A stretch of 64,000 nucleotides of DNA from Bacteroidota bacterium (GCA_049515655.1 JBEKTW010000015.1:23320-87319); one strand, 5' to 3'. Counted from the stretch's first letter, positions 19,512 to 54,455 are shown. Made by a program: numbers and translations. Notes: generated by a model not told the origin, from the letters alone.

Positions 19512-19617
19512 GATGTCGCTGGAATTGATGGCACTGATGGGTCGAATACTCCAGCAGCCTTCATCATAAGCGGTTTTCCCATCGTTGGCGCCGCAGATTG
19601 AAATTAACAAAAGAGGA

Positions 19618-21138: not shown

Positions 21139-21155
21139 CTAACAGGAGCAGCTCT

Positions 21156-24186: not shown

Positions 24187-24294
24187 CGGGTCGAGATGAT
24201 TCCCTGACTATGTTCTTTGCCAGCCCGCAGAGAGCGCCTCAGACGTGACGGGGGCGACCCTGCCGGCTGGCGTGAACATAATGGTATCCGATGT

Positions 24295-26496: not shown

Positions 26497-26499
26497 GAA

Positions 26500-28539: not shown

Positions 28540-29371
28540 TCTGAGCGGGAAACAGTTTCAGCGTTTCACCCGGTTGAATAGAACCCTTCATGTCATCATG
28601 ATCATTAGTTTCATGAGTCTGGCTCTTACGGGTATGACGCTCAAGTTTTCCTATACGACATGGGCAGCAGTCCTTTCGCATCTTCTCGGCGGATTTGAGT
28701 CGGCGGGATATATCCACAGGGTTGCCGCAGTGTTCATGATAGGTATCTTTGTGACCCATCTTGTCGATATCATACGGATAAAGCGGGCGGAACACCGGTC
28801 GTGGCGCTCGATGATCTTCGGACCCGACTCGATGATGTTCAACAAGAAAGACCTTCGGGATTTTATCGCGTCGGTAAAATGGTTCCTCGGAAACGATACC
28901 CGCCCGAGGTTCGACCGCTGGACATATTGGGAGAAGTTCGATTACTTTGCGGTATTCTGGGGAATCGCCGTGATCGGCTCGACCGGATTAACACTGTGGT
29001 TTCCCGAATTCTTTACGCGCTTTATTCCCGGGTGGTTTATCAACGTGGCGACAATCATTCACAGCGATGAAGCCTTGCTCGCCGTGGGTTTCATTTTTAC
29101 GGTCCATTTTTTTAATACGCACCTGCGTCCCGAGAAATTTCCCATGGATATTGTTATCTTTACAGGAAGGATGGGCGTGGAAGAACTTGAACGGGATAAA
29201 CCGGGAGAGTACGAAGCGCTCGTCAGGAGTGATAAACTGAGCGAGAATCTCGTTGATCCCTATCCGCCAGTTGTCATCAAGTCGGTGCGGGTTTTCGGAT
29301 GGACGGCACTGACGATAGGTTTTTGTATGGTTGTTTGGATTATTTACGCAATGATTTTTGCATATCGGTGA
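28469..29371 (+). CDS. Cytochrome b subunit (FdnI/HydC-type), partner of the 19-heme cytochrome
   Basis: RTLH, IHRVAA, WTYWEKFDYFAVFWG, IIHSDEALLA, VHFFNTHLRP. Confidence 0.88.
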   Translation: METKDQIKTTTSIEAETAQTPRSDLSGKQFQRFTRLNRTLHVIMIISFMSLALTGMTLKFSYTTWAAVLSHLLGGFESAGYIHRVAAVFMIGIFVTHLVDIIRIKRAEHRSWRSMIFGPDSMMFNKKDLRDFIASVKWFLGNDTRPRFDRWTYWEKFDYFAVFWGIAVIGSTGLTLWFPEFFTRFIPGWFINVATIIHSDEALLAVGFIFTVHFFNTHLRPEKFPMDIVIFTGRMGVEELERDKPGEYEALVRSDKLSENLVDPYPPVVIKSVRVFGWTALTIGFCMVVWIIYAMIFAYR

Positions 29372-34482: not shown

Positions 34483-35979
34483 ATGAAACGTATTTTTCCG
34501 AGTTCTTTTTATAATCTAGTTACGCTGATCGGATCCGTCGTCGCGGCGGTCAGTTTCGGGCTCATCGTCTTCCTGATGCTGCTTGAGGCGGTGGCGACAC
34601 AGCCCAAGCCGTACATGGGGATCATCGCGTTTGTTATTCTCCCGGTGTTCGTCGTGATCGGAATCATCCTCGTCATCATCGGAATCTTGCGCGAACATCG
34701 GAGAGAACGGCTGGGGAAGCCGCACGGGTTCCACATGCCGCAGATCGACTTCGACAACCCCCGGCATCGAACCGCATTCTTGTTTTTTTCCATCGGGGCG
34801 CTCATTCTTCTGGCATTCTCCGCCTTCAGCAGTTTCCAGGCATATGAACACACCGATTCCGACCAGTTCTGCGGGGAGACGTGTCACAAGGTGATGGAGC
34901 CCGAATATACGGCATACCAGTTTTCTCCGCACGCCCGGGTGGGCTGCGTGAAGTGCCACATCGGTCCCGGAGCAGGATGGTTCATTCGATCCAAACTTTC
35001 CGGGACATACCAGGTCTACGCGGTAACTTTCAACAAGTACCCGAAGCCAATTCCGACCCCGATCGAGAATCTGCGCCCGGCGCAGGAGACTTGCGAACAA
35101 TGCCACTGGCCCAAGCAGTTTTTCAGCGAGAAGCAGCATGTCAACACGTACTTTCTCTCGGACGAGCGTAATACGAAATGGACGCTGAATCTCCTGATGA
35201 AAATCGGAGGCGGAAACGTGGAAGCGGGCCCGACGTCAGGCATCCACTGGCACATGAATATCAACAATGAGGTCACGTACATTCCGCTGGATGCGCAGCG
35301 GCAGATCATCCCGTGGGTGCGATCAAAACGCCCCGATGGATCTGTATCTATCTACCGCAGCACAGAGATGACGGTTTCCGACGACTCGCTGGCTAAAGCC
35401 CCCCATCGCCGGATGGACTGTATCGACTGCCATAACAGGCCCACGCACATTTATCATCCGCCCGCGCGATCTGTTGACCACGTCATGGCATTGGGCTGGA
35501 TCGATCCCGCTATCCCCTCGGTCAAGAGTGTTTCCGTGAAAGCGCTGGAGTATCCGTACAGCACAAAGCAGACCGGACTGGACAGCATCAGGATGTCGAT
35601 CGAAGAGTACTACAGAAACAACTATCCCAATGTCGCATCTTCAAAAAAGAACGAGATCGATCGGACAATTACCGAAGTTCAAAGAATTTACACCAGGAAC
35701 TATTTCCCGGAGATGATGGTGAGCTGGCGAAAATTTCCGGACAATCTTGGCCATCTCTACTACCAGGGTTGTTTCCGCTGCCACGACGGCAAGCATGTGA
35801 GTGAAGACGGAAAAGTCTTGTCGCGGGATTGCAACACGTGTCATACGATTCTGGCCCAGCAATTTGAGAATGATACGCTCCGTTTGTCCCTGGGGGGAAT
35901 CGAGTACAAGCATCCCGTCGATATCGGGAATGCATGGAAGGAAATGAACTGCAGTGATTGCCACTTTAATAACCAATGA
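34483..35979 (+). CDS. NapC/NirT-family heptaheme quinol dehydrogenase (ImcH-like)
   Basis: 3 TM helices; CGETCH, CVKCH, CEQCH, CIDCH, CFRCH, CNTCH, CSDCH; GIHWH. Confidence 0.88.
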   Translation: MKRIFPSSFYNLVTLIGSVVAAVSFGLIVFLMLLEAVATQPKPYMGIIAFVILPVFVVIGIILVIIGILREHRRERLGKPHGFHMPQIDFDNPRHRTAFLFFSIGALILLAFSAFSSFQAYEHTDSDQFCGETCHKVMEPEYTAYQFSPHARVGCVKCHIGPGAGWFIRSKLSGTYQVYAVTFNKYPKPIPTPIENLRPAQETCEQCHWPKQFFSEKQHVNTYFLSDERNTKWTLNLLMKIGGGNVEAGPTSGIHWHMNINNEVTYIPLDAQRQIIPWVRSKRPDGSVSIYRSTEMTVSDDSLAKAPHRRMDCIDCHNRPTHIYHPPARSVDHVMALGWIDPAIPSVKSVSVKALEYPYSTKQTGLDSIRMSIEEYYRNNYPNVASSKKNEIDRTITEVQRIYTRNYFPEMMVSWRKFPDNLGHLYYQGCFRCHDGKHVSEDGKVLSRDCNTCHTILAQQFENDTLRLSLGGIEYKHPVDIGNAWKEMNCSDCHFNNQ

Positions 35980-35991
35980 TAGAACAAAGGA

Positions 35992-36447
35992 ATGAATGAG
36001 CAGCCTCTAAACCCGACTCAACAAAGCAAGCGGGATTTCCTCAAGTACGTTCTCACCGGAGGATTGCTCGCCTGGGCGGCATCCATCCTGTATCCGATAT
36101 TCGCGTATCTCAAGCCGCCGAAGCAAAGCGAGGTTGAGGTAAGCAGCGTGAAGGCGGGGAAGTTGAGCGAGATTGAGAAGGATAGCGGAAAAATCGTCAA
36201 ATTTGGCACGAAACCGGTGATTCTCATCCGTTCGGCAGACGGGAACCTGAGAGCATTCTCGGCGACCTGCACGCACCTCGATTGCACGGTACAGTACCGG
36301 AAGGATTACGGACTGATCTGGTGTGCGTGCCACAACGGTAAGTACGACCTCAACGGCCGCAACGTGTCCGGTCCGCCGCCGCGTCCTCTGGACGAATATA
36401 GAGTCATTGTTCAAGGAGAGGAGGTCTCAATCTCGAAGAAATCATGA
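35992..36447 (+). CDS. Rieske [2Fe-2S] subunit of a Rieske/cytochrome b complex
   Basis: CTHLDC and CACHNG boxes, GPPPRPL, Tat-like SKRDFLK. Confidence 0.92.
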
Positions 36448-37523
36448 TACTGCGATTGAAAAAAATATACTCGTGGATCGACGAACGGGTGCAGCTCGAA
36501 GACGTGGTCAATTTTATGGGCAAGAAATATGTGCCCCTCCACAGCCATTCGATCTGGTACTACTTCGGCGGTGTGTCGCTCTTTCTGTTCATCATCCAGG
36601 TTGTCACCGGCATTCTTCTTCTGCTCTACTACAAGAGTGGTGAGGAGTTCGCGTTTGAGAGCATTCAGTTCATCATGTCGAAAGTCGAATTCGGCTGGCT
36701 CATACGTTCCATTCACAGTTGGACCGCGAACCTGTTCATCCTGGCGGCGATGGTTCATATGTTCAGCGTGTATTTCGGGAAAGCCTACCGCAAACCCCGA
36801 GAGGTGACATGGCTAACGGGCATGCTGATGTTCTTTCTCGCGCTGGGCTTCGGTTTCAGCGGGTACCTTCTGCCCTGGAACGAACTCGCATTCTTCGCGA
36901 CGAAAGTCGGCACGGACATCGCCGGTGTGGTTCCCCTCGTCGGCAAACCGATGATGATATTTCTCAGAGGCGGGGAAGAAGTCACGGGCGCGACCCTCTC
37001 CCGCTTCTTTGGTTTTCATGTGGCGGTCTTGCCCGGGTTATTTACCGTGCTCCTTGGAATCCATCTTCTTCTTGTGCAGCGCCAGGGTATGAGCGAGCCA
37101 ATTGAAACCGAGCCTGGAGCGGGTGTCGAACGAAGGACAATGCCGTTCTTTCCGAATTTTCTGCTGAGAGACCTGTTGCTCTGGCTTATCGTCCTGAATC
37201 TGCTCGCGATACTTGCGGTCTTTTTCCCTTGGGAATTGGGAAGGAAAGCCGACCCGTTTGCACCGGCGCCGGCAGGTATCCGGCCCGAGTGGTATTTCCT
37301 GTTCATGTTCCAAACGCTGAAGTTCATTCCGGCAAAAATGCTGTTCCTCGACGGAGAGGTGCTTGGCATAGGCCTCTTCGGTCTGGGGGGACTCTTGTGG
37401 CTACTGGTTCCCTTCTGGGATAGAAAAAGCTCTCGGGGTGAACAGAATCGCTTCATCAATTACATCGGACTGTTCATCGTTCTGTACATTATGATCTTCA
37501 CAGTACTGGGGTGGATCTTATGA
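36444..37523 (+). CDS. Cytochrome b of a Rieske/cytochrome b complex (b6-like, fused to subunit IV)
   Basis: Four His ligands, SGYLLPW, PEWY Qo motif. Confidence 0.93.
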
Positions 37524-38998
37524 GCCGGAAAATTTCATGCGCGATAGCAGTCATCACCTCCGTACTCCTCGGGAGTAATCCCGCAGTTGCAGGAGACCAG
37601 TGTGTCACATGTCACGAGACCCTGGGTGACAAACCGTCGGAGCTGTTCAAACACGATGTGCATGCTGCGAAAGGAATCTCCTGTGCTGGATGTCACGGGG
37701 GAAATGCGAAGGCGGAAGAGATGGAGCAAGCGATGGATAAAAGCGCCGGGTTTATCGGCGTGCCGAAGGGGGATGATATCTCCAGGGCCTGCGCGAGCTG
37801 CCATTCGAATGCCGAAAAGATGAAAGCATTGGGGTCATCGCTTCCGACCAACCAGTGGGAAATGCTGCAGGCAAGCGTTCACGGGAAGCTTGCCGTCTCC
37901 GGCAAAGAGCATATTGCACAATGTATCACATGCCATAACGCCCACGGCATCGTTTCGGTGAAGAACCCTGAATCCCCGGTGTATCCGCTAAACGTCGTAA
38001 TAACCTGCACGAAATGTCATGCGGATGCGGCGTTCATGCGATCGTACAATCCATCGCTGCCGATCGACCAACTGGAAAAATACCGGACGAGCGTGCATGG
38101 CGTTCGAAACGCCGGAGGTGATGCCAAACCCGCGGAGTGTGCAAGTTGCCACGGCAGCCACGACATTCGGTCGGCGAAAGACGCGAAGTCACGCGTCTAT
38201 GCGGTCAACCTTCCATCAACCTGTGCCTCCTGCCACAGCAATGCAGAGTACATGAAGGAATACAAAATACCGACAGATCAATTTGAGAAATTCTCAAGAA
38301 GCGTACACGGCATCGCATTGCTTCAGAAGCATGACCTCGGCGCTCCAGCGTGCAATTCGTGCCACGGCAACCATGGGGCCACGCCGCCGGGCGTGGAGTC
38401 GGTGTCGAAAGTCTGCGGGACATGTCATGCGCTCAATGCGGACCTCTTCTCATCGAGCCCGCACAAGAAAGCGTTCGATGAGAAGCATCTTCCCGAATGT
38501 GAAACGTGTCACAGCAGTCATGAGATCGTTGCAGCGACGAGTAAGCTCCTCGGTGTCACGCCCGATGCGGTGTGCAGCCGGTGCCACCATGAGAATGAGA
38601 CTGGAAAGGGATTTGTTGTCGCACGAACGATGCGATTGTTGACCGACAGCCTTGAATCATCGGAGATTCGCGCTGCGTCGCTTCTTGACGAGGCCGAACA
38701 AAAGGGAATGGAAGTTTCCGAAGCCAAGTTCAAGCTCCGCGATGCGCACCAGGCGCGGCTGCAGTCACGAACAATGGTGCATTCATTTGATGAGGGTAAG
38801 TTCCGTGACGTCATTTCAAAGGGGTTGACGGTGGCATCGTCGGTCGGGAGTGAAGGACAGCATGCGGTCGACGAGTATTATTTCCGGAGATGGGGCCTCG
38901 GCATTGCGACGCTGATCATTACAATCGTCGGCGTATCATTATACCTCACCATTAAGAGAATTGAAGCTAGACAACGCGCGAAGAAATCACTGTCATGA
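37520..38998 (+). CDS. 11-heme cytochrome c with C-terminal TM anchor
   Basis: Signal peptide, 11 CxxCH, C-terminal TM; ATGA overlap with cytochrome b. Confidence 0.9.
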
Positions 38999-39010: not shown

Positions 39011-41269
39011 ATGAATGTGGGACAAGTAAGCGTATGGGTTGCGTTCCTGGCCGCTGGGGCGAACGCGTATTTCTTTTACAGGGATGGGAGGAATAGTTCT
39101 CGATCGAGGCAGGCGATCTCCACCGGTATCGCCAAAACCGCGTCGCATCGTCTTTACTGGATTATGCTTCTAGCCGGTGCTGCGGCGTCGGGAATCCTCA
39201 TCGAGTTGCTGCTCACCCATCAATTTCAGTATTCCTACGTTGCTCACTATAGCTCGCGGTCGCTTCCCCTTTTCTACCTCATCTCTGCATTTTGGGCAGG
39301 CCAGGAAGGGACATTCCTTCTCTGGGCGTTGATGGTCTCGGTGATGGGATGGGTGTTTATAAAGACTTCGGAGAACGAAGACGGCTTTGCAATGTCGGTG
39401 GTGAGCGGGTATTGTGCCTTTCTCTACCTGTTGTTGATTGTAAAAAGTCCGTTTGAGATGACATCAACAATTCCGGAAGACGGCGCGGGTCTTAATCCAC
39501 TGCTGCAAAATCCTTGGATGGTCGTTCATCCTCCAATATTGTTCATGGGATATGCCGCAACGGTGTTCCCGTTTGCGCTCGTTGTCTCTGCTCTTGCCCG
39601 ACGTAACACCGGACACTGGTTTGAATCGGGCTTCGTATGGTCGATCTTTGCGACGCTCACACTGGGCGCCGGAATCATCATCGGCGGGTTTTGGGCGTAC
39701 GAAGTGTTGGGCTGGGGCGGATACTGGGGATGGGACCCGGTGGAAAACTCCTCGCTGGTTCCGTGGTTGGTACTGCTGGCATTGATTCATGGCTTCCTCG
39801 TGCAGAGGGCCAGAGGCTCGCTGGTGCGGACGAATATGTTCCTTGCCATTTTTGCGTTTCTGCTTGTGCTTTACGCGACATTCCTGACACGCAGCGGTAT
39901 ACTGGCTGATTTCTCCGTCCATTCGTTCGTCGACCTCGGCATCAGCAACTACCTCATCGGTGTGATGGTCGTCGGCGCCGCCCTGGGCTTGGGATGGTTC
40001 GCAGTTCGGTTCAGAGACTTCACGTCCCCCAGGATTCCACTCTCAGGACTCAATAGGGAGATTACGTTGTTACTCGGTTTGTGGGTGCTAGTTCTGGGCG
40101 CTCTCTTCACGTTCGTCGGAATGTCTTCGCCGATTCTCACCGGGCTTTTCGGGAAAGCATCGCAGGTGGACACCTCCTTTTATAACAAGGTCAATCTCCC
40201 GGTCGCGATCGGCATCGCGTTGTTGCTTGGCGTCACCCCGTTTCTTGGGTGGACGGAAGAGAACAAGTGGGGGTTCGCCAAACGGCTTTCCATGCCGCTC
40301 TCGTTGACTGTTCTCACGTGTGTCATCGCATATGTCGCGGGAGTGACGACGGCCGCACTGCTCGCGTTCGTCGGGTCGGCATCCTTCGGGCTCATAAGCA
40401 ATGTTGTGATTGCCTTCCGGAAATATCGGTCGGGTTGGTTGACGCTGGGTGGCCCGATCACCCATATCGGTACAGGTCTGCTCCTCATCGGAATCATCGG
40501 CTCCGGGAGCTTTGACGAGACCAGACAAACGGTTTTGCGGCTCAATGAACCCCAGACTATTTTCGGCTACCAGTGCACGTTCAAAGGATCGGCACTATCT
40601 TCCGACCAGAGAACACAAATACAGATTGAAGTGTCGGATGGAAGGAATACGTACGCTGCAAATCCGAAGTTGTTTTTCAGTACCTATAATCAGTCGATGC
40701 TTCGCGAGCCCGATATCAAGATATTTCCGATGAAGGATTTATATATCTCTCCGATTGAATTACGATCGTCGCAGGTCGAAAGTCCCCACATAACCCTGGA
40801 GATCACAAAGGGCGAGAAGAAGACCGTTGGGGGATACCAGATAGAATTCGTTCGATTTGAAACAGGCCAACACAGTCAACCGGGAAATATGTCCGTCGGG
40901 GCTGTTCTGAACGTGAGCCTTCAGGGCGAAACCCATGAAGTCACTCCGACCATGACGATCAATGAACAAGGAGAGCGCAATCTCATTCCGGCAGATTTGC
41001 CTGCCGTCCCCAACATGGGGCAGGGCTCGGCCAAACCGCAGGTTGCGCTGACGGGCATGAGCGTGGAACAGAAAAAAGTAATGCTTGAACTTCTCGGCTT
41101 TGATGAGCACGCCGGCGCCCTTGCAGTTCAAGAGCTCGTGGTTGAAATCAGCACCAAACCGCTGATGATGGTTGTTTGGACTGGCGTAATGCTCATCATT
41201 GCCGGAACCGCCATTGCACTGAAACGCAGGCTGACGAAGAATACGTTGTCGCAGGACCCTACCCGATGA
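39011..41269 (+). CDS. ccmF: Cytochrome c maturation heme lyase CcmF
   Basis: WAGQEG, GLNPLLQ..HPP, WGGYWGWDPVEN, TRSG..SVHSF. Confidence 0.93.
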   Translation: MNVGQVSVWVAFLAAGANAYFFYRDGRNSSRSRQAISTGIAKTASHRLYWIMLLAGAAASGILIELLLTHQFQYSYVAHYSSRSLPLFYLISAFWAGQEGTFLLWALMVSVMGWVFIKTSENEDGFAMSVVSGYCAFLYLLLIVKSPFEMTSTIPEDGAGLNPLLQNPWMVVHPPILFMGYAATVFPFALVVSALARRNTGHWFESGFVWSIFATLTLGAGIIIGGFWAYEVLGWGGYWGWDPVENSSLVPWLVLLALIHGFLVQRARGSLVRTNMFLAIFAFLLVLYATFLTRSGILADFSVHSFVDLGISNYLIGVMVVGAALGLGWFAVRFRDFTSPRIPLSGLNREITLLLGLWVLVLGALFTFVGMSSPILTGLFGKASQVDTSFYNKVNLPVAIGIALLLGVTPFLGWTEENKWGFAKRLSMPLSLTVLTCVIAYVAGVTTAALLAFVGSASFGLISNVVIAFRKYRSGWLTLGGPITHIGTGLLLIGIIGSGSFDETRQTVLRLNEPQTIFGYQCTFKGSALSSDQRTQIQIEVSDGRNTYAANPKLFFSTYNQSMLREPDIKIFPMKDLYISPIELRSSQVESPHITLEITKGEKKTVGGYQIEFVRFETGQHSQPGNMSVGAVLNVSLQGETHEVTPTMTINEQGERNLIPADLPAVPNMGQGSAKPQVALTGMSVEQKKVMLELLGFDEHAGALAVQELVVEISTKPLMMVVWTGVMLIIAGTAIALKRRLTKNTLSQDPTR

Positions 41270-45059: not shown

Positions 45060-45115
45060 CATGATTCGCATAGTTGAATTTCCCATACAACAATTACAAA
45101 CAAAGGAGACATAGT

Positions 45116-47878
45116 ATGAAGCAATCAACTACAGTTTTTCTTGTAGGATTGCTGATTTTTGCTGTTACTGGCACTGCGATGGCGACAGTTCCGACGGCAA
45201 GAATAGTGATCAGGGCTGCCTCAACGGGGCTGATCGCAAGCCATCCGAGCGAATTCAATGCAATATCGGACGGCTTGCCGAATGTCGGCCGTGGCAGCAG
45301 GGTGTGGCTTGAAGCGGCTGCCTTGGAAGGCACTGTCCCGAGCACACTCCATTACGACACGCTGACTGGCGCAACGTGGCGAGTCATCTCTGCCCCCGCC
45401 CACTCGGTTGCAACTATTCGGGCGACGGATACGGCTAATGGCTTAAAAGGCTTTACGGCGATGTTCGTTCCCGATTCATTAGGTCAATATCAAATCGGCT
45501 TGACCGTTACCACGTTGAATGGCACAAGCGCTGAAGTGACGGAGTACATTAACTCCGCAAATTATGTAGGCGTTGGGACAATCATCGGCAATTCGCCAAC
45601 CGCTCCGGAGTGCGGCGCTTGTCATAATGGAAACGTGGTGGCAGACAAAGTGACACCGTGGCAAGGAACAGCGCATGCGACGATGTTTTCGAACAGCATT
45701 GATGGGAAGAATGGGGCCTACATGAGTTTCTGCATTTCGTGTCACACGACGGGGTACAACGCCACTCCAACGGCCGTGAATAATGGCTTCGATGATCGCG
45801 CCACAGCCTATGGTTGGCATTTCCCCGACACGATAAAGGCCGGCAACTGGGATTATATGAAGGCCAACTATCCGGAAGTTGCAAAGTTGGCGAATATCCA
45901 GTGCGAAGACTGCCATGGACCTGGAAGTTTACACCTCGGTGCAATGAACAAGAATCAAATCGCAGTGAGTTGGTCGTCTGAGATGTGCGGACACTGCCAT
46001 GATGCCCCGCCGCATCACACGAAGAACGAGCAATGGAATATGACGGCCCATGCTATCTCCACGGAGGAGGGCGTGGACATTGAGGCCATGAATCGTGCCC
46101 CTTGTGCCCAATGCCACACTTCACAGGGTTTCGTCGATGTGACAATCGACGGCAACACTGATGCAGCACCGTATACGAATGTTCAGCCGGTCGGCTGCAT
46201 TGGCTGTCATGATCCCCATGACGCATCCCATCCAGCGCAACTCCGTCGCGCATCTCTGGCAGACGCGTGCACCGGATGCCACCTGACGCGCATCAGCTCT
46301 CGCGGTTTACATAGTAATACTCAGGGACCTATGCTTGCAGGAGCGAGTGCTATACCGTACAACGGGCAGGGTGGCATCGCCGGCGGAATCGATAACTGGA
46401 GTGGATGGCAGCTTGCCGGATACATGTATCCCAATTCCGCGCACTCGAGCATCACCGACAAATGCGTCACATGTCACATGGCAACGGTTCCGGCAGATTC
46501 TCTGGTAGGTAAGCTCGGCGACCATTCATTCAAAGTTGCCTACGACCAGGACAGCACGCACACGATCTTTAACACAAACGGTTGTGTGTGCCATGGTACC
46601 GGTGGAGTTGCCCCGGTCACCCAGACCTACGTCGAGCAGAGTCAGGCCAAAATAAATGCCCTTCTTGATACGCTTGCGACGTTGTTGCCTCAAAAGAGCG
46701 GTGTCGTTCGCAGTCACAATGATACATCGTATCACGCATGGACACCGTTAAAGATTGCAGGAGCGTATAATTACTATTTCGTTAACAACGATGGTAGCTT
46801 TGGCGTTCACAACCATAATTACGCAACAGCATTGCTAACCTCGTCTATCGAGCAGTTGAGACTTGTCGCCGGTGCAGCGACTATTGCCTCCATCAAAGAT
46901 GTTCCGAACGATCAGGGAAAACAGGTTCAGATTGTTTGGAATATATTCCCGACGGAACAGAGCAGCATTGATCCCGTGACACAGTATGGTGTTTGGAGAC
47001 AAGACGCTCTCTCTAGCTCAAACGTGTCAACAGTGAAATTCCATTCTTTCAGAGAGATGCTGTCCAAAGGAACGGTCGGTTCACGGTATGCCGTCAACGG
47101 ATATGTGTGGACGTATGTCGGTTATGTGCCTGCTGCCAAGCAGAGCATGTATTCCTTTGTTGCACCGACACTGTTTGATTCAACGATCAGCGCGGGCATG
47201 AAGTGGACATACTTCTATGTGACTGGATTAACCAACAACGGTGTTGTGTATAGTACGATGCCGGACAGCGGTTATTCGGTCGACAACTTGGCTCCAGCGC
47301 CACCCAGCGGAATCGGTGCACGGATCATTGCAAATACCGTCCACCTTGGGTGGAGGATATCGTTAGATCAGGACTTCAAGTACTTTGCGGTCTACCGGGG
47401 AACATCTCCCGATTTCAACCCGCATGGAACAAGTCCGCTGGCGACGACATCCGACACATCCTACGTTGATCAGAATGTTTCAGCCGGTGCGACGTATTAC
47501 TATAAACTATCTGCATTTGACTTCTCGGGTAATGAGAGCCAATATTCACCCGCTCTGACGGTAGTCGTGCTTGGTGTTGGCGAGAATAACGGCGCTCCAA
47601 GGGAGTACGCCCTTGCTCAAAACTATCCGAATCCGTTTAACCCATGGACTGAGATCAGATATCAACTTCCTGAAGTCGCTCACGTGAAAATCACAGTGTA
47701 CAACACACTCGGTGTGCAAGTTGCTACGCTGGTCGACAGGAACGAAGAAGTCGGCTATTATACCGTCACATGGGACGGGAATGACAATCGGGGTAATGTT
47801 GTTGCAAGCGGCATTTACCTCTATAAGATGGAAGCCGGTTCGTACTCGGTAGCGAAGAAGATGATCTTCATGAAGTAA
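45116..47878 (+). CDS. Multiheme cytochrome c (8 CxxCH + 1 CxCH) with Ig/FN3-like domains and T9SS type-A C-terminal sorting domain
   Basis: Signal peptide, heme region ending DGSFGVHN, DNLAPAPP..YYYKLSAFD, QNYPNPFNP..VASGIYLYKM..KKMIFMK. Confidence 0.9.
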   Translation: MKQSTTVFLVGLLIFAVTGTAMATVPTARIVIRAASTGLIASHPSEFNAISDGLPNVGRGSRVWLEAAALEGTVPSTLHYDTLTGATWRVISAPAHSVATIRATDTANGLKGFTAMFVPDSLGQYQIGLTVTTLNGTSAEVTEYINSANYVGVGTIIGNSPTAPECGACHNGNVVADKVTPWQGTAHATMFSNSIDGKNGAYMSFCISCHTTGYNATPTAVNNGFDDRATAYGWHFPDTIKAGNWDYMKANYPEVAKLANIQCEDCHGPGSLHLGAMNKNQIAVSWSSEMCGHCHDAPPHHTKNEQWNMTAHAISTEEGVDIEAMNRAPCAQCHTSQGFVDVTIDGNTDAAPYTNVQPVGCIGCHDPHDASHPAQLRRASLADACTGCHLTRISSRGLHSNTQGPMLAGASAIPYNGQGGIAGGIDNWSGWQLAGYMYPNSAHSSITDKCVTCHMATVPADSLVGKLGDHSFKVAYDQDSTHTIFNTNGCVCHGTGGVAPVTQTYVEQSQAKINALLDTLATLLPQKSGVVRSHNDTSYHAWTPLKIAGAYNYYFVNNDGSFGVHNHNYATALLTSSIEQLRLVAGAATIASIKDVPNDQGKQVQIVWNIFPTEQSSIDPVTQYGVWRQDALSSSNVSTVKFHSFREMLSKGTVGSRYAVNGYVWTYVGYVPAAKQSMYSFVAPTLFDSTISAGMKWTYFYVTGLTNNGVVYSTMPDSGYSVDNLAPAPPSGIGARIIANTVHLGWRISLDQDFKYFAVYRGTSPDFNPHGTSPLATTSDTSYVDQNVSAGATYYYKLSAFDFSGNESQYSPALTVVVLGVGENNGAPREYALAQNYPNPFNPWTEIRYQLPEVAHVKITVYNTLGVQVATLVDRNEEVGYYTVTWDGNDNRGNVVASGIYLYKMEAGSYSVAKKMIFMK

Positions 47879-47942: not shown

Positions 47943-48100
47943 ATTATTTCGATAAGGGCGGAGATGTACTCATTATTCAAATTTTACGAAATGGAACCGA
48001 ATGACCGAGAAGAAAATAGTCCTTTCCTGCCGGGACTGGAAGCTTGCTCCTTGTGGAGGAATTTGCTAGATTCTCAGGCTAACGCATATTGTTGGAAGAT

Positions 48101-50119
48101 ATGAGATTCCTGGTCATTTCATTTTTCTGCTGCTCTCTTTTTGTCGCTTCTGCGGAAGCTCAGCAACGATCCGGCGGATATCTCCAGCAGGAGAAGAGTC
48201 TGATGGACGCCGAAGCTCGGCGCCACCAAGTGCTTACTCCACAAAACACAGTTGCAAGCCTCGCCGGCGATTCTTACGATGTCACCTACTACCGCCTCAA
48301 TCTGCGAATGGCGGCAGGTCATTCGATTTCCGCTGGTCTTTGGGGTGAGGTAACCGTATCCGCTTTTGTGAGTCACGCCAGCCTTGATACATTCGTCCTG
48401 GATCTGATGAAACCGATGACAGTGGATTCAGTGAGAGTTGAGGGGGTTCCCTCATCGTTTGAGCAGGATCCTGTTTCTGTTCGAATCGCACTTGGCCGCG
48501 GTTACGGTCCCGGCGAGCGGGTCACGGTCGATGTCTTTTATGAAGGCATTCCTCATCCGACGGAATTTGGGAGCTTTGAGATCGACACGGGTCGGACACC
48601 CGCTTGGATCTGGTCGCTCAGCGAACCCTACGGCGCGAGAGATTGGTGGCCGTGCAAGAATTCTCCCGGCGATAAAGCGGACTCCGCAGACATTATCGTA
48701 ACCTGCGATTCGACATTCAAGGTCGGTTCCAACGGTAAGCTCATTTCCGTTCTGAACAACGAAGACGGGACATCAACCTGGCACTGGGCAGAACGATACC
48801 CGATCTCTTCCTATCTTATTTCGGTAGCGCTCACGAATTTTGCTTCCTTTTCAAACTGGTTTAAATATTCGCCGACCGATTCGATGGAAATACTGAATTT
48901 CGTTCTGCCTGAAGATCTGTCGCAGGCCCGGGCAAATCTTCCTAGAACGGTTGACATGCTTACGATCTATTCGAGACTGTTCGGCTTGTATCCATTCATC
49001 AAAGAGAAGTACGGACACTCGGAGTTTGGATGGGGCGGGGGGATGGAACACCAGACAATGACTTCCGTCTCCGCCAGCGGTTTCGGAGAATACGTTATAT
49101 CCCATGAGCTGGCACATCAATGGTTCGGAGATATGATTACCTGCCGGACCTGGTCCGACATCTGGCTGCATGAAGGCTTCGCAGTGTATTGCACCGCGCT
49201 TTATTATGAAAAGGAATACGGCGTCGATTCATACCGGGGATTTATGGAAGACGAGATGTCCGGGGCAAAAAGCGGGGTGGGAACGATTTTCGTACAAGAC
49301 ACAACCTCGGTGGGCAATATCTTCAACGGCAACCTCGAGTACCAGAAAGGTGCAGCGGTTCTGCACATGTTGAGGCATATCCTTGGAGACAGCACGTTTT
49401 TTCATGCGATGTATAACTATGCGAATACTCCGGCATTGAGGTATTCCACTGCGATGACGGAGGATTTCAAGGCGGCGTGTGAAAATGTCTCCGGCAAGAA
49501 CCTCGATTATTTTTTCAACGAATGGATCTACGGTGAGAACTATCCACAGTACACGTACTCCTGGTCTTCACACCCCTCTTCGGATAGTTACACCGTGACA
49601 GTGCGCGTCCGTCAAGGCACCGGAACGGCAAATCCCCCTTTTTTCACAATGCCGGTTGATTTGAAGTTCACGTCTTCCGGCTGGGATACCGTCGTAACGG
49701 TGTTCAATGATTCTCAACAGCAATCGTTCACGGTGGGGATTTCGCATGATCCGACGTCGGTTCTTCTTGACAACGACGGCTGGATCCTGAAGGATGCGGC
49801 CCTCGTGCCGGACGGTGTGTTGAGACCCGCTCCGGTAGTTTCGAACTTTTCACTGGAACAGAATTATCCGAATCCGTTTAATCCTTCAACGGTCATTTGC
49901 TACCAAATTCCAAAGGCAACGCGGGTTACTATCATCATTTATGACCTGCTCGGTGCGGAAGTGGCGATGCTCGTCGACGGCCATCAGGAATCCGGAGACC
50001 ATTCGGTTATCTGGAACGGCGTGGATCGGTTCGGTCATCAGGTTGCCAGCGGAATTTACTTGTATAAGATTGAAGCGGGCACAATTCAGTCAGCGAAGAA
50101 AATGGTATATCTCAGGTAG
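48101..50119 (+). CDS. M1-family zinc aminopeptidase with T9SS C-terminal sorting domain
   Basis: GGMEH, HELAHQW..WLHEG, QNYPNPFNP CTD; TTGCTC-17-TAGATT promoter at 48044-48072. Confidence 0.92.
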   Translation: MRFLVISFFCCSLFVASAEAQQRSGGYLQQEKSLMDAEARRHQVLTPQNTVASLAGDSYDVTYYRLNLRMAAGHSISAGLWGEVTVSAFVSHASLDTFVLDLMKPMTVDSVRVEGVPSSFEQDPVSVRIALGRGYGPGERVTVDVFYEGIPHPTEFGSFEIDTGRTPAWIWSLSEPYGARDWWPCKNSPGDKADSADIIVTCDSTFKVGSNGKLISVLNNEDGTSTWHWAERYPISSYLISVALTNFASFSNWFKYSPTDSMEILNFVLPEDLSQARANLPRTVDMLTIYSRLFGLYPFIKEKYGHSEFGWGGGMEHQTMTSVSASGFGEYVISHELAHQWFGDMITCRTWSDIWLHEGFAVYCTALYYEKEYGVDSYRGFMEDEMSGAKSGVGTIFVQDTTSVGNIFNGNLEYQKGAAVLHMLRHILGDSTFFHAMYNYANTPALRYSTAMTEDFKAACENVSGKNLDYFFNEWIYGENYPQYTYSWSSHPSSDSYTVTVRVRQGTGTANPPFFTMPVDLKFTSSGWDTVVTVFNDSQQQSFTVGISHDPTSVLLDNDGWILKDAALVPDGVLRPAPVVSNFSLEQNYPNPFNPSTVICYQIPKATRVTIIIYDLLGAEVAMLVDGHQESGDHSVIWNGVDRFGHQVASGIYLYKIEAGTIQSAKKMVYLR

Positions 50120-50212
50120 CCGGATGTGCGCCGTGACCGATGTTTGATTTTATGGCGGAAGTTTACGATATTCATCAGAACCATCGTTGAAGAATAACAA
50201 AAAGGAGATTCA

Positions 50213-50347
50213 ATGTACGAATTCATGACGCAGAACCCGTTGTACATCGTCCTGCTCATTGTTCTCATTTGCTGGTTGGGAATTTTCACGTACCTTGTAC
50301 GTATCGACAAGAAGATTACACGACTTGAACAACGCATGAAAGAATAA
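50213..50347 (+). CDS. ccmD: CcmD-family heme exporter small subunit (44 aa)
   Basis: MYEFMTQNPLYIVLLIVLICWLGIFTYLVRIDKKITRLEQRMKE; single TM plus charged tail; SD aaaggag; directly upstream of ccmE; below the ORF-track cutoff. Confidence 0.8.
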   Translation: MYEFMTQNPLYIVLLIVLICWLGIFTYLVRIDKKITRLEQRMKE

Positions 50348-50356
50348 GGTGAACCG

Positions 50357-50746
50357 ATGAAAAGCAAAATCATTACCGCGAGTGTGGTTATCGTTGCGGC
50401 TCTGGTGTTCGGCGCACTCTCATTCGTGGAAAGCAATGTTGAGTACACGGACATGCAGACGGCAATGTCTTCGCACAAAAGGGTGCAGGTAAAAGGTGCA
50501 TGGGTGAGGGAAAAGGAATCGACGTTTGACGCCGACAAAGGCCAATTTGTGTTCTTCATGAAAGACGATAACGGCCAGGAAACGAAGGTCGTCTTTGATG
50601 GAGCAAAGCCGAACAATTTTGAGATCGCCAATGCGATTGTCGTGAAGGGACGCTATCAGGATGGGTATTTTCACGCGAGCGACATTCTGACGAAGTGTCC
50701 ATCGAAGTACGAGGCCAATTCAGATACAGTAAAGAAAACTCTCTAA
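50357..50746 (+). CDS. ccmE: Heme chaperone CcmE, CxxxY variant
   Basis: N-terminal TM, FHASDILTKCPSKY. Confidence 0.9.
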   Translation: MKSKIITASVVIVAALVFGALSFVESNVEYTDMQTAMSSHKRVQVKGAWVREKESTFDADKGQFVFFMKDDNGQETKVVFDGAKPNNFEIANAIVVKGRYQDGYFHASDILTKCPSKYEANSDTVKKTL

Positions 50747-50756
50747 GACCATCACG

Positions 50757-52073
50757 GTGAAATTCTTTCAACGGTTTTTGCTTCTTGTCTCCCTTCTTGC
50801 TGTTTCCTCGTTGACAAACGCTCAGCTCGTCAACGGCCGGTTCAGCACCTCCGTTTATGCGTGGCAGCAATTTGACACGGTCGGCGTTTCTCAGACCTTG
50901 GCTCGGGGATTCCAGACCCTGCAACTCGAAGTATCGCAAGGGGATGTTTCACTGCGCACATCGATGTATGGCGCTACGAATTTTTCACAGTCGTTTGGTA
51001 ATGATGGACTTATTCGCATCAACAACCTGTATCTGAGATGGAAAAACATCGAAGATGCAATGGATCTCAGCCTGGGGAGAATTCCTGTCTTTGCCGGTGT
51101 CGGCAACGGGACTTTGGACGGTGCCCTGATCAAGGCGCGGGGCATGGATGAACGCGTCTGGTTTACAGCCTACGGGGGGGCGAACGTTCTACCCGATCTA
51201 AAATCAATGAGTTTCAGCGACCTCGATCAAAAGTTTTTGATTGGAAGCCAGCTCATCACAACGTTGATTCCTCAGGCACGGATTGGTGTCAGTTATGTGA
51301 ACCGTCATATTCCACGGGAGAGCTATTGGGCAACACGCCCGGATTCACTTTTCAATCCAACGACCGTGCTTATTGTTCCGGATTCCCGGGCTCAGCAGGC
51401 AGTGGGAGTTGATGCCCGCTACGACCAGGATGGCGCGTATTCTGTTTACAGTCGGTATGATTATGATTTGAATTCCAAGTACACGCTTCGCGGACAGTTC
51501 GGCGCTCGCGTGCAGACTTCCGATCAACTTGCGCTCACGGGAGATTTCATCTATCGCGAGCCGTATGTTCCCTTTAATTCTTTCTTCACAGTCTTTCCGG
51601 TCTCTCCGATTCGTGAATTAGAGGGCGGTATCGAGTATTCTGTTTCGCCTTCCTATCATGCGTTTGGAAGATTCGCGTACGTCGGATATGTCGACGCGCT
51701 CAGCCGGCGTATTACTGTGGGAATGAACGCAGACTACGGCAGCATCAGCTATGCGGGTAGCAGCGGATATGCCGGCATCCTGAATTCATTTTATGTGCAG
51801 GGGATGTACCCGTTGTTGGATCGTACGCTTGTTCCCACGGTCGGATTTTCTTATTCCAAATACCGTTTGAGTGAAGAAGCGACCCAGGATGACAACGTGT
51901 TTGCCGGATCGTTTGGCGCGGTCGTTCGACCGTCGTCGCTCATTTCGGTCGACGCACAGGTGCAATGGCTGCACAACGACATTGCCAGTCATGATGTCCG
52001 GCTGCTTGTGAACGTGAACTATTGGTTTAATCACAATTTTAAGTTCCTCCAGCACAAGGAGGCGAGCGAATGA
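50757..52073 (+). CDS. Putative outer-membrane beta-barrel (porin of a porin-cytochrome conduit)
   Basis: Signal peptide, alternating aromatic beta-strand pattern throughout, no hemes, ATGA overlap with a multiheme gene. Confidence 0.7.
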   Translation: MKFFQRFLLLVSLLAVSSLTNAQLVNGRFSTSVYAWQQFDTVGVSQTLARGFQTLQLEVSQGDVSLRTSMYGATNFSQSFGNDGLIRINNLYLRWKNIEDAMDLSLGRIPVFAGVGNGTLDGALIKARGMDERVWFTAYGGANVLPDLKSMSFSDLDQKFLIGSQLITTLIPQARIGVSYVNRHIPRESYWATRPDSLFNPTTVLIVPDSRAQQAVGVDARYDQDGAYSVYSRYDYDLNSKYTLRGQFGARVQTSDQLALTGDFIYREPYVPFNSFFTVFPVSPIRELEGGIEYSVSPSYHAFGRFAYVGYVDALSRRITVGMNADYGSISYAGSSGYAGILNSFYVQGMYPLLDRTLVPTVGFSYSKYRLSEEATQDDNVFAGSFGAVVRPSSLISVDAQVQWLHNDIASHDVRLLVNVNYWFNHNFKFLQHKEASE

Positions 52074-53122
52074 TGCAAAGGTATATCGCTGCCGCTTTGT
52101 TCCTGGCCCTGTTCGTCGCTGTTTCCGTTGCGATGAAAGAGCCTATGCGGAAATACTGGCAGGAGGAAGACCACTCCAAGTTTATTAAGTTTTCGCATAC
52201 GTTCCACGTAAGGGAGCAGAGTATCGCCTGCGTAGATTGTCACACGGATGCCAAAGCGAGCAAGCTTTCGTCGGATAATCTTCTGCCGAATCACGAAAGC
52301 TGCAAGACGTGTCATGATGAGCAAGTTGCGGGCAATTGTACATATTGCCATACGACGAAGGATAATATTCTTCCGATAAAACGACCGGAACGCGAACTGA
52401 TATTTTCTCATGAGCTCCACGCAGGGAAACAAAATATCAATTGTGAAACGTGCCACGCCGGAACGGACACTGTCACCTTTGCAACGAGCAGGAACATGCC
52501 AGCGATGACGGCGTGTGTGAGCTGTCACGAGCAGAAAAAGATTTCAACGAATTGTGAAACCTGCCATCGCGACTTTGTTACGCTCGTTCCCGAGGATCAC
52601 CTTACAACGGATTTCCGCAAAGAGCACAAGAAGCTCACCCGACTGGGCATGAAAGATGTAACCTGTAAAACGTGTCACTCGGAGAATTTCTGTCAGGATT
52701 GCCACACGGGGACGGAGTTGCACGGCTTCTCGGGCACGAAAGACTTAATGGCCGAGCCGGCACCCAGCCCATTCGCAAAGGATTCACCGAAGCAATTGAG
52801 ACTGCAAAAAGCTCATGGGCTGAATTACCGGTTCACCCATGGCGTGGAGGCAAAATCGAAGGCGCTCGACTGCGCATCATGCCACGAACAACAAACGTTT
52901 TGCGTGACGTGTCACGAAGCCGGCGGCAACATTAACCAGCTGAAATTCAAGCCGGCATCGCACATTGCGGCCGGGTTCACGACCATCGGTAAAGGGTCCG
53001 GCGGCGGACGGCATGCTGAGCTCGCCCGGCGCGACCTCGAAAGCTGTATGTCGTGCCACGACGTGCAGGGAAATGACCCGACATGCATGTTATGTCACAC
53101 AGGAAATGGCGGAGTACGATAA
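52070..53122 (+). CDS. Periplasmic 12-heme cytochrome c (c3/c7-like repeats)
   Basis: 12 CxxCH, FSHxxH motifs, signal peptide. Confidence 0.9.
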   Translation: MMQRYIAAALFLALFVAVSVAMKEPMRKYWQEEDHSKFIKFSHTFHVREQSIACVDCHTDAKASKLSSDNLLPNHESCKTCHDEQVAGNCTYCHTTKDNILPIKRPERELIFSHELHAGKQNINCETCHAGTDTVTFATSRNMPAMTACVSCHEQKKISTNCETCHRDFVTLVPEDHLTTDFRKEHKKLTRLGMKDVTCKTCHSENFCQDCHTGTELHGFSGTKDLMAEPAPSPFAKDSPKQLRLQKAHGLNYRFTHGVEAKSKALDCASCHEQQTFCVTCHEAGGNINQLKFKPASHIAAGFTTIGKGSGGGRHAELARRDLESCMSCHDVQGNDPTCMLCHTGNGGVR

Positions 53123-53126
53123 CTGC

Positions 53127-54179
53127 ATGAGAAAGCTTGAATCCATCTGTGTATCGTTTGCTCTTGCCGGTCTTATGCTCCATCCCGGATGCACGAAACT
53201 GGACGAAGGATTGCCGGCGCCGACAAGCGGTCAAGTGCAGGTTCATCCGGCCGGGTGGGGCGACACCAACTCGACGAGTTTTCACGGCAAATTCTTGAGC
53301 GCAAAAGCATGGCAATTGAGCAACTGCACGCCATGCCATGGGGACGCGCTTGGGGGCGGGACGGCCGGAGTGTCCTGCTTCACATGCCATAAATCCTATC
53401 CCCACAGCGCCGGATGGACAGATTCAACAACGGCAGGACTCCACGGAAATTTCATCCAGGCATCGGGATGGGATATGCGTCAATGCCAGACGTGCCACGG
53501 AGTCACCTACGCAGGAGGACGAGTGAACGTTTCGTGCCTGACGTGCCACACAAAACCAAACGGTCCCGAGAACTGCACAACTTGTCACGGTGGAATCAAC
53601 GCGGCTCCGCCAAGAGATCTCAGCGGGAATACGTCGACAACTGCACGTGGCGTCGGTGCGCATCAGGCTCATCTGCTCGGAAGCTCTCTCGCCTCACCGT
53701 TGCTCTGCTCCGAGTGCCATAATGTTCCCTCGTCGGTGTATCAAGCCGGGCACATTGGTTCTACCGGTCATGCTGAGATACACTTCAACGGTCCGCTCGG
53801 CACGTTGAAAACAGCCGGCGGGACGTTTGTTCCAGCGCCGTCGTATGACGTAACAACGGGCAAGTGCAGCAATACATTCTGTCACGGCAACTGGCGTCAC
53901 GAGGAATCGACTTCTGCGTACCAATGGGCGTTCAAGGATACGGTCATGGCAGGCGCAAACTATTCTCCTTCATGGACAGGAGGTTCTTCCGAATCTGCGT
54001 GCGATAGTAGTTGTCACGGTTTGCCGCCGGCTGGGCACCTCCAGACGGCAGACAAGTGCGCTCAGTGTCACACCGGGGTTGTGGACTTCAGCGGCAACAT
54101 CATCGACTCGACGAAACACATTAACGGAAAAGTAGACGTCTTCGGGCAAGATACAACGATTTTCCATTCTCAACTGTGA
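53127..54179 (+). CDS. Probable lipoprotein multiheme cytochrome c (7 CxxCH + CX4CH + CX3CH)
   Basis: Signal ending LHPGC, CSNTFCHG, CDSSCHG, HINGKVD. Confidence 0.85.
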   Translation: MRKLESICVSFALAGLMLHPGCTKLDEGLPAPTSGQVQVHPAGWGDTNSTSFHGKFLSAKAWQLSNCTPCHGDALGGGTAGVSCFTCHKSYPHSAGWTDSTTAGLHGNFIQASGWDMRQCQTCHGVTYAGGRVNVSCLTCHTKPNGPENCTTCHGGINAAPPRDLSGNTSTTARGVGAHQAHLLGSSLASPLLCSECHNVPSSVYQAGHIGSTGHAEIHFNGPLGTLKTAGGTFVPAPSYDVTTGKCSNTFCHGNWRHEESTSAYQWAFKDTVMAGANYSPSWTGGSSESACDSSCHGLPPAGHLQTADKCAQCHTGVVDFSGNIIDSTKHINGKVDVFGQDTTIFHSQL

Positions 54180-54239
54180 AAGGAAGCACGAAGTAGTTTG
54201 TCATAATTGAAAAGCTGAACGCGCATTCTGCCGGTCTTG

Positions 54240-54268
54240 AGCCATTCCCCCCACGGAATGGCTTTTTT
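54240..54268 (+). terminator. Intrinsic terminator closing the ccmDE-porin-cytochrome operon
   Basis: agccattcc-loop-ggaatggct then T-tract. Confidence 0.75.
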
Positions 54269-54455
54269 CTTTCCTGTCTGGAGAGGAACAGTGGCATAGT
54301 CATTGATTAATGTATCAGAGAGGTGCCGGAAAGCCCGCGTGTGAGAATGAAAACGGTGACGGTGGAAGAGAGCTACAGCGACAGGCGTGCTCCGAACAAC
54401 CTCATAAAGAAACCGAGTTCACTATTTCAGATTTTCTTAAACGAGCACACATCTT

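Follow-up and report, generated by a model that had tools for sequence, protein, structure and literature searches.

The question raised by this locus is whether three tightly coupled genes, at positions 50,757 to 54,179 of a 64,000-nucleotide stretch of DNA from a Bacteroidota bacterium (GCA_049515655.1 JBEKTW010000015.1:23320-87319; hereafter the window), encode a route for electrons across the outer membrane, and whether such a route is of a new kind. The genes encode a beta-barrel protein, a 12-heme c-type cytochrome and a probable lipoprotein cytochrome, and an earlier note on the same DNA had likened them to porin-cytochrome conduits. The gene layout, the heme motifs, the fold of the barrel, the conservation of the trio and a modeled lumen-threaded complex were computed. 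On this basis the trio is likely, with a probability of about 0.75, to be a porin-cytochrome (Pcc) complex of the Ignavibacteria type that carries electrons across the outer membrane.

The basic description of the locus was confirmed from the DNA: an exported, heme-free barrel, a 12-heme cytochrome and a lipoprotein cytochrome, connected by a 4-nucleotide (nt) overlap and a 4-nt gap and closed by a terminator-like hairpin (Table 1). The overlap is an ATGA shared by the barrel and 12-heme genes at 52070-52073, and the gap between the 12-heme and lipoprotein genes lies at 53123-53126. In the frame of the third gene the longest open reading frame (ORF) begins at 52965, overlapping the 12-heme gene, and the ATG at 53127 is the sensible start. 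The terminator-like hairpin begins 60 nt past the stop codon of the third gene. The barrel protein has a signal peptide (MKFFQRFLLLVSLLAVSSLTNA, followed by Q23 as the first mature residue), contains no CxxCH motif, and is encoded by a single-copy gene in the genome. The 12-heme cytochrome contains 12 CxxCH motifs and 25 His within 350 amino acids (aa), and all 12 motifs, together with 10 more His, were invariant across 48 aligned cytochromes (alignment A2). The lipoprotein cytochrome starts with MRKLESICVSFALAGLMLHPGC and contains seven CxxCH motifs, one CSNTFCH (CX4CH) and one CDSSCH (CX3CH). Twelve invariant CxxCH motifs in 350 residues and more than 170 homologues of the barrel lie far outside what chance would give.

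The barrel matched no family in Pfam or NCBIfam, MtrB and PioB models included, at E ≤ 0.01. Its profile gave a best E value of 0.55 against the sequences of the PDB, a chance match to the unrelated enzyme glyoxalase II. The protein was folded by AlphaFold2 on an alignment (A1) of 47 homologues, giving an all-beta model of residues 23 to 428 with a mean predicted local distance difference test (pLDDT) score of 87.2 and a predicted template modeling (pTM) score of 0.75. DSSP identified 22 long strands and two 4-residue strands (190-193 and 203-206). The two short strands are read here as extensions of strands 9 and 10, forming a long outer hairpin in the model, and the strand count may instead be 24. 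The barrel fold that had been supposed from the sequence was thereby supported by a confident model with about 22 strands.

The top Foldseek matches were the 24-strand usher pores FimD and PapC (E 2.2e-12). A fold search independent of Foldseek placed FyuA, a 22-strand TonB-dependent transporter, first (Z 19.4, 361 residues aligned); on the same scale FimD scored Z 19.1, and MtrB (6r2q_B) was found at rank 23 with Z 15.9 over 349 residues, a superposition that indicates likeness of fold only. The earlier note had also called the barrel much smaller than MtrB, and this holds for both the chain (438 aa against about 650 residues) and the strands (about 22 against 26); Pcc porins were already described as much smaller than MtrB, with 18 to 22 predicted strands, by Shi et al. 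in 2014 (PMC4245776; this and the other papers cited here are used in excerpt). The small size of the protein reflects its short loops and not a narrow barrel. As modeled, it is in the size class that, in TonB-dependent transporters, encloses a folded plug domain. The argument on lumen size draws on the number of strands, the fold matches and the modeled contacts.

For the complex, the mature barrel (residues 23-438, alignment A1) was modeled together with the mature 12-heme cytochrome (residues 23-350, alignment A2). The median score was 0.69 (runs 0.78, 0.69 and 0.67), with 0.00 as the best of three controls. A score of 0.69 is reached by 116 of 157 solved complexes and by 2 of 215 mismatched pairs, counts that are approximate here, our own alignments having been used. 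The runs had at least 77% of their contacts in common, and the pLDDT of the partner was at least 70. Confident contacts involved 137 of the 416 barrel residues and alternated along 21 of the 22 strands, the pattern expected of side chains that face the lumen. On the cytochrome side they involved 99 residues, all within 157-348. Cytochrome residues 255-262 and 319-327 contacted barrel residues 268-284, 311-314, 337-342 and 371-375, which in the usual topology would be outer loops, and residues 188-192 contacted 175, 219 and 231, at the opposite ends of the strands. Because of this pattern the C terminus of the cytochrome would point outward, provided that the barrel termini are periplasmic, as is the usual topology. 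The model thus places hemes 1 to 5 in the periplasm and hemes 6 to 12 within the lumen, oriented as MtrA is in MtrB. Threading of the C-terminal half of the 12-heme protein through the barrel, for which the earlier note had asked for a model, was in this way supported in silico.

The conservation of the trio was assessed in two sets of loci: 20 related loci with 6-kb flanks (set 1), and the best 80 of at least 585 relatives of the cytochrome (among the 599 pattern matches listed for species-representative genomes; set 2). The two sets share genomes and are not independent samples. In set 1, 20/20 loci had the barrel first, then a 12- or 14-heme cytochrome and then the lipoprotein cytochrome. 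In set 2, the barrel lay directly upstream of the cytochrome in all 74 loci with sufficient room and the lipoprotein cytochrome downstream in 70/70, both partners being present in 64/64, so that the trio was kept together throughout. Barrel homologues at E ≤ 0.001 numbered 176 in 90% clusters and 265 among 50% representatives. Those with named origins were labeled Ignavibacteria or Bacteroidota, and remote relatives included candidate division KSB1. Among 401 genomes sampled across the phylum, the barrel was matched in 67, of which 66, the genome of the window included, belong to the same class as the window; the other was a weak partial match (E 4.7e-16). Some families were saturated (17/17, 19/22, 9/10 and 7/8) and others were empty (0/87, 0/61, 0/28, 0/21 and 0/12). 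DNA nearly identical to positions 50100-54300 was also present in peat and wetland metagenome runs from different studies (sampled-word shares of 0.80, 0.60 and 0.49). A peat habitat fits humic or iron respiration, without being evidence for that respiration.

The 12-heme cytochrome matched Pfam Cytochrome_C7 (E 2.9e-15) and was far under the NCBIfam cut-offs of QrcA, the GSU2203 family and the DmsE/MtrA decaheme family, with 28.6 bits against a cut-off of 192.2 for the last (TIGR03508). Its profile found 3ov0 as the closest PDB entry (E 3e-28) and also matched subunit A of alternative complex III (ACIII); the MtrA chain of 6r2q was matched only at E 0.002. The window cytochrome aligned from end to end, with 35 to 42% identity, to proteins of 400 to 424 aa with 14 CxxCH motifs from related genomes. 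These relatives of about 400 aa add a C-terminal module of about 50 residues with two CxxCH motifs, making 14 hemes, and the window protein is the short form. Placed on the model, the additional two-heme module would protrude at the outer opening of the barrel.

For the third protein, the lipoprotein reading was supported by the alignment of the lipobox cysteine, C22 (LHPGC), in 21/21 homologues; the CX4CH motif was likewise aligned in 21/21. The protein matched Pfam Cytochrome_C7 and c3_2, with no match to an MtrC-type domain, and its score of 25.2 bits for the CxxxxCH/CxxCH domain (TIGR01904) was slightly under the cut-off of 27. An acidic residue was counted by hand two positions past the lipobox Cys in 14 of the 21 proteins (C-S/A/T-E/D; the window and L032-L051), the window protein reading CTKLDEG from that Cys. 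Acidic residues after the lipid-modified cysteine are a surface-export signal for Bacteroidota lipoproteins.

The window lipoprotein cytochrome has an extra N-terminal two-heme module. Outer cytochromes of this group were found to carry 5 to 11 CxxCH motifs, with N-terminal and internal two-heme repeats of the form H..GW...S..FHG...C..CHG..Y.GG...C..CH. Heme modules thus appear to be gained and lost at the ends of both cytochromes, the periplasmic one having 12 or 14 hemes. It was considered whether the outer cytochrome, by its extra N-terminal module, compensates for the C-terminal one that the 12-heme protein lacks; this idea was dropped, both combinations being found among the relatives.

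As to whether the conduit is of a new kind, the earlier note had proposed an uncharacterized, separate family, a claim that did not stand: the cluster type was already described in Ignavibacterium album by Shi, Fredrickson and Zachara (2014; PMC4245776) and in later metagenome papers. In the 2014 survey, Pcc clusters were defined by similarity to Geobacter OmbB/OmaB/OmcB (BLAST E < 0.01), with 5 to 14 hemes allowed across the group, and I. album was listed as a carrier with the cluster IALB_1837-1839. IALB_1838, with 400 residues and 14 heme motifs, was the largest of the Pcc periplasmic cytochromes, IALB_1837 was an outer cytochrome with an atypical motif (CX3-15CH), and IALB_1840 was an associated periplasmic cytochrome. 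The porin IALB_1839 and IALB_1838 were reported as only distantly related to their counterparts in other Pcc clusters. OmbB-like clusters were later reported in two Ignavibacteria genomes of an anode community, with citation of reports on Melioribacter roseus and I. album (PMC7399161), and a Geobacter-like pcc porin in seven Ignavibacteriales metagenome-assembled genomes (PMC6137239). The published porins of Ignavibacteria and I. album were retrieved by searches based on Geobacter, by BLAST at E < 0.01 (PMC4245776) or with an OmbB hidden Markov model (PMC7399161). The excerpts of a multi-omics paper on M. roseus (PMC5492636) contain no passage on porins or multiheme cytochromes and hence no expression evidence, and a literature search for a Kryptonia paper on this cluster type found nothing relevant.

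Because the traits of the relatives fit the published description of I. album point by point, we strongly infer that the window trio is an Ignavibacteria-type Pcc cluster, the match being to that description and not to the named sequences. The genes stand in the same order, with the porin-like barrel first, the periplasmic multiheme cytochrome next and the outer cytochrome, which has an atypical CXnCH motif, last. Relatives of the window trio carry the 14-CxxCH cytochrome of about 400 aa and a tetraheme gene of about 180 aa upstream of the barrel. The window differs in that its periplasmic cytochrome has 350 aa and 12 hemes and lacks the C-terminal module with two CxxCH motifs, and in that its outer cytochrome has the additional N-terminal module. 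In addition, its tetraheme gene lies 27 kb upstream rather than adjacent, and ccmD and ccmE precede the barrel. On sequence grounds, the window trio is taken to be a 12-heme variant of a published predicted system, and the claim of a separate, uncharacterized conduit family is not new.

Similar comparisons can be made with the better-known conduits. As in OmbB-OmaB-OmcB and OmbC-OmaC-OmcC of Geobacter sulfurreducens, a porin-like protein is combined with a periplasmic and a lipoprotein multiheme cytochrome, and the 22 long strands of the window barrel are within the range published for Pcc porins, whereas the periplasmic protein has 12 hemes instead of 8 and the outer one up to 9 instead of 12. 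With Shewanella MtrCAB (6r2q) the modeled arrangement shares a multiheme chain sheathed by a barrel, with its C terminus outward and, presumably, a lipoprotein cytochrome outside. Unlike the components of MtrCAB, MtoAB and PioAB, however, the barrel is outside the MtrB/PioB family and the cytochrome outside the DmsE/MtrA family, with 12 hemes and not 10. The best solved relative of the cytochrome is the Geobacter dodecaheme protein 3ov0, which we take to be GSU1996. It also has 12 hemes from c7-like modules and was matched in two stretches, although the match mainly covers residues 34 to 170 of the window protein. The Geobacter protein is not known to be sheathed by a barrel.

The genes around the trio were then considered as possible accessories (Table 1). 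A CcmD-family gene and a gene for the heme chaperone CcmE precede the barrel gene; CcmE ends 10 nt before the barrel start with no terminator-like site in between, and co-transcription of ccmDE and the trio is plausible from the layout. As a general feature, the co-transcription with ccmDE claimed in the earlier note was not sustained: ccmE was found near the trio in 0/20 loci of set 1 and 2/80 of set 2, and the linkage is therefore taken to be local to the lineage of the window. CcmF directly follows the trio in five loci of set 1, and the window copy is 9 kb upstream. The window CcmE has CPSKY in place of the canonical heme-binding HxxxY and is paired with a CcmD_alt gene; it is presumably the cysteine variant described for archaea and some sulfate reducers.

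Table 1. Features of the window and selected related loci. Positions are counted from the first nucleotide of the window, or of the related locus where one is named.
Feature	Position	Strand	Basis and remarks
PAS histidine kinase and sigma-54 regulator pair	19585-22505		Judged from translations; ahead of the genes at 24217-29371
Periplasmic tetraheme cytochrome, 185 aa	23629..24186	+	63% identity to L036 copy, E 8e-74
Multiheme protein, 759 aa	24217-26496		Apparent C-terminal membrane domain, judged from translation
Multiheme cytochrome, 679 aa	26500-28539		C-terminal membrane helix, judged from translation
Membrane protein, 300 aa	28469-29371		Judged from translation
Block of NapC/NirT-like 6-heme protein, Rieske protein, cytochrome b and 11-heme cytochrome	34483..38998	+	Pfam
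CcmF	39011-41269		
Multiheme cytochrome, 934 aa, 8 CxxCH, with type IX secretion system (T9SS) C-terminal sorting domain	45074..47878	+	TIGR04183, 32.8 bits, cut-off 23
M1-family metallopeptidase with T9SS sorting domain	48089-50119		Between T9SS cytochrome and ccmD
CcmD-family gene	50213..50347	+	PF20077 CcmD_alt, E 4.1e-7
CcmE heme chaperone	50357..50746	+	PF03100, E 3.6e-15; CPSKY (CxxxY) motif
Outer membrane beta-barrel ("porin"), 438 aa	50757..52073	+	ORF; GTG start
Periplasmic 12-heme c7-array cytochrome, 350 aa	52070..53122	+	ORF
Lipoprotein multiheme cytochrome, 350 aa, presumed outer-face partner	53127..54179	+	ORF
Terminator-like hairpin with T run, closing the operon	54239..54264	+	10 pairs (5 G-C), then TTTTCTTTCC
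5-heme lipoprotein copies in related loci	L032 2738-3949; L033 8536-9651; L034 8609-9817; L036 3667-4884; L041 2491-3693; L043 2601-3767		

The 934-aa multiheme cytochrome is a possible extracellular acceptor of the conduit. A full PorU (973.9 bits against a cut-off of 420) indicates that the genome encodes a T9SS, and the part of that model covering the sorting domain was matched about 50 times more. With a sorting domain above the cut-off, the cytochrome classes as a type A cargo protein of that system. In the closest relative (L052), a homologue of this cytochrome is located directly upstream of the barrel. Among 69 loci with sufficient room, an ORF with a T9SS sorting domain ended at most 700 nt upstream of the barrel in nine; seven of these nine partial ORFs contain CxxCH, and an eighth is the L052 homologue. 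Residues 305-596 of the window protein are homologous to 5-heme lipoproteins in the clusters of six relatives (E 1e-18 to 8e-32). The earlier statement that the conduit feeds the T9SS cytochrome is thereby reduced to a possibility, based on adjacency in 9/69 relatives and on the homology of its core to the 5-heme lipoprotein. A literature search found no papers linking the T9SS with multiheme cytochromes or extracellular electron transfer. The 5-heme lipoproteins, of about 400 aa, are encoded beside the outer cytochrome in 6/20 relatives and have a Gly-Pro-rich, collagen-like linker after the cysteine, for example CEGPQGPAGKDGKDG. Judging from these homologies, one heme module apparently has two kinds of surface attachment, a lipid anchor and the T9SS. 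The M1-family metallopeptidase has no evident link to electron transfer and is absent from that place in L052, where the cytochrome homologue abuts the barrel.

On the periplasmic side, a tetraheme gene of about 180 aa lies directly upstream of the barrel in 12/21 loci, and its product in the window is a possible periplasmic shuttle. The four-gene Rieske block is immediately upstream of the trio or the tetraheme gene in L034, L039, L040, L041 and L043. L037 has an equivalent without a called Rieske ORF, and the window block is 12 kb upstream of the trio. This block may be a dedicated quinol oxidase that feeds the conduit. No papers tying Ignavibacteria Rieske/cytochrome b complexes to extracellular electron transfer were found, and the I. 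album genome paper, as excerpted, reports ACIII as present and a Rieske/cytochrome b complex as absent in I. album.

In the proposed mechanism, the three proteins would be exported and hemes would be attached by the products of the nearby System I genes (CcmD, CcmE and CcmF). The barrel formed by the 438-aa protein would have about 22 strands, joined on the outside by short loops. Hemes 1 to 5 of the 12-heme cytochrome would lie in the periplasm and hemes 6 to 12 would run through the lumen, bringing the last hemes to the outer rim, where the lipid-anchored cytochrome (up to 9 hemes) would receive the electrons. From there they would pass to acceptors that are insoluble or large, such as Fe(III) minerals, humic matter or another cell as partner; the T9SS-anchored 8-heme cytochrome encoded 3 kb upstream may be an intermediate in this transfer. 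Electrons would probably enter from the menaquinol pool. They would likely be taken up by the Rieske/cytochrome b/multiheme block, or else by a fused multiheme-cytochrome b protein that the window also encodes, with the small periplasmic tetraheme cytochrome as the next carrier after quinol oxidation. What we infer for this scheme is that the hemes are occupied, that the lipoprotein is exposed at the surface, which way the electrons flow and which partners act upstream and downstream.

Other explanations of the same locus were weighed against this scheme. The same architecture could serve inward flow, with Fe(II), a cathode or a syntrophic partner as the donor of electrons to the respiratory chain, as in MtoAB/PioAB. 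Homologous conduits work either way (MtrAB versus MtoAB/PioAB), Rieske/cytochrome b complexes serve reverse electron flow in iron oxidizers, and such a block is present in the window and beside the trio in five to six relatives. However, the window region carries heterotroph genes (electron transfer flavoprotein, acyl-CoA dehydrogenase), and cultured Ignavibacteria with this cluster type have been reported as Fe(III) reducers and as enriched on anodes (PMC7399161, PMC6137239), so inward flow is considered unlikely. The barrel could have a different role, either as a usher- or Slam-like pore through which the cytochromes are exported or assembled, or as a general diffusion porin that shares the operon. 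Such a role is suggested by the leading position of FimD and PapC in Foldseek and by the lack of a sequence family tying the barrel to MtrB. The fold matches track the size of the barrel and not its function, though, since TonB-dependent transporters and MtrB score similarly, and the plug, N-terminal and C-terminal domains of ushers are missing, all 416 mature residues being barrel. The confident contacts of 99 cytochrome residues with the whole lumen in the model, with controls at 0.00, and a strict class-wide linkage of the three genes, typical of a stable complex, make such a role very improbable. Nor is much to be expected of a soluble or periplasm-accessible acceptor (polysulfide, arsenate, selenate or a humic analogue), reduced at the inner face of the outer membrane, where the lipoprotein would be the terminal reductase. 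Although pcc clusters occur in an anammox bacterium and in bacteria that respire sulfur, selenate or nitrate (PMC4245776), and the surface exposure of the lipoprotein cytochrome is presumed by analogy, a 12-heme chain filling the lumen would be needless for a periplasmic reaction, and additional cytochromes with T9SS sorting or a lipid anchor recur beside the trio; this explanation has only a slight chance of being correct.

Outward conduction by a Pcc complex remains the preferred reading, and several points count against it. The direction of flow cannot be read from sequence, and a Rieske/cytochrome b complex beside the clusters of relatives also fits electron uptake. The operon is proposed from the gene layout. 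For the third protein, the window lipobox LHPGC deviates from the usual L-x-G/A-C, with the cysteine in register, the AlphaFold2 model was unusable (19 sequences; mean pLDDT 42.6, pTM 0.21), and its placement outside the membrane follows known conduits by analogy. The complex was modeled from apo-proteins, without hemes, and its high score may reflect memory of the solved MtrAB (6r2q), indicating likeness and not binding. Conserved barrel columns were enriched among the contacts (31/61 versus 137/416 overall; hypergeometric p 0.0013), which is weak support because lumen-facing residues tend to be conserved anyway. In the literature passages available, no experiment on any member of this conduit family was found. 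A further proposal is tentative, and we would rather doubt than assert it: that the conduit is a structurally separate solution, in which a compact 22-strand barrel, with no relation to MtrB detectable in sequence, is threaded by the C-terminal half of a c7-array dodecaheme, and that in part of the lineage its outer end connects with the Bacteroidota-type T9SS, so that T9SS-anchored cytochromes serve as terminal reductases in place of or beside lipoproteins.

Peat, sediments, aquifers and anode biofilms are common habitats of Ignavibacteria and their relatives, and the case from genomes that these bacteria respire minerals, humic matter or electrodes depends mainly on clusters of this type. 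In species-representative genomes, at least 585 stretches contain relatives of the 12-heme cytochrome. What is added here is a testable architecture, in which the model predicts the half of the cytochrome that would lie in the barrel, the loops that it would touch and where the extra hemes of the 14-heme form would project, together with a recurrent minority association of the conduit with T9SS-sorted cytochromes, to which electrons may be handed over.

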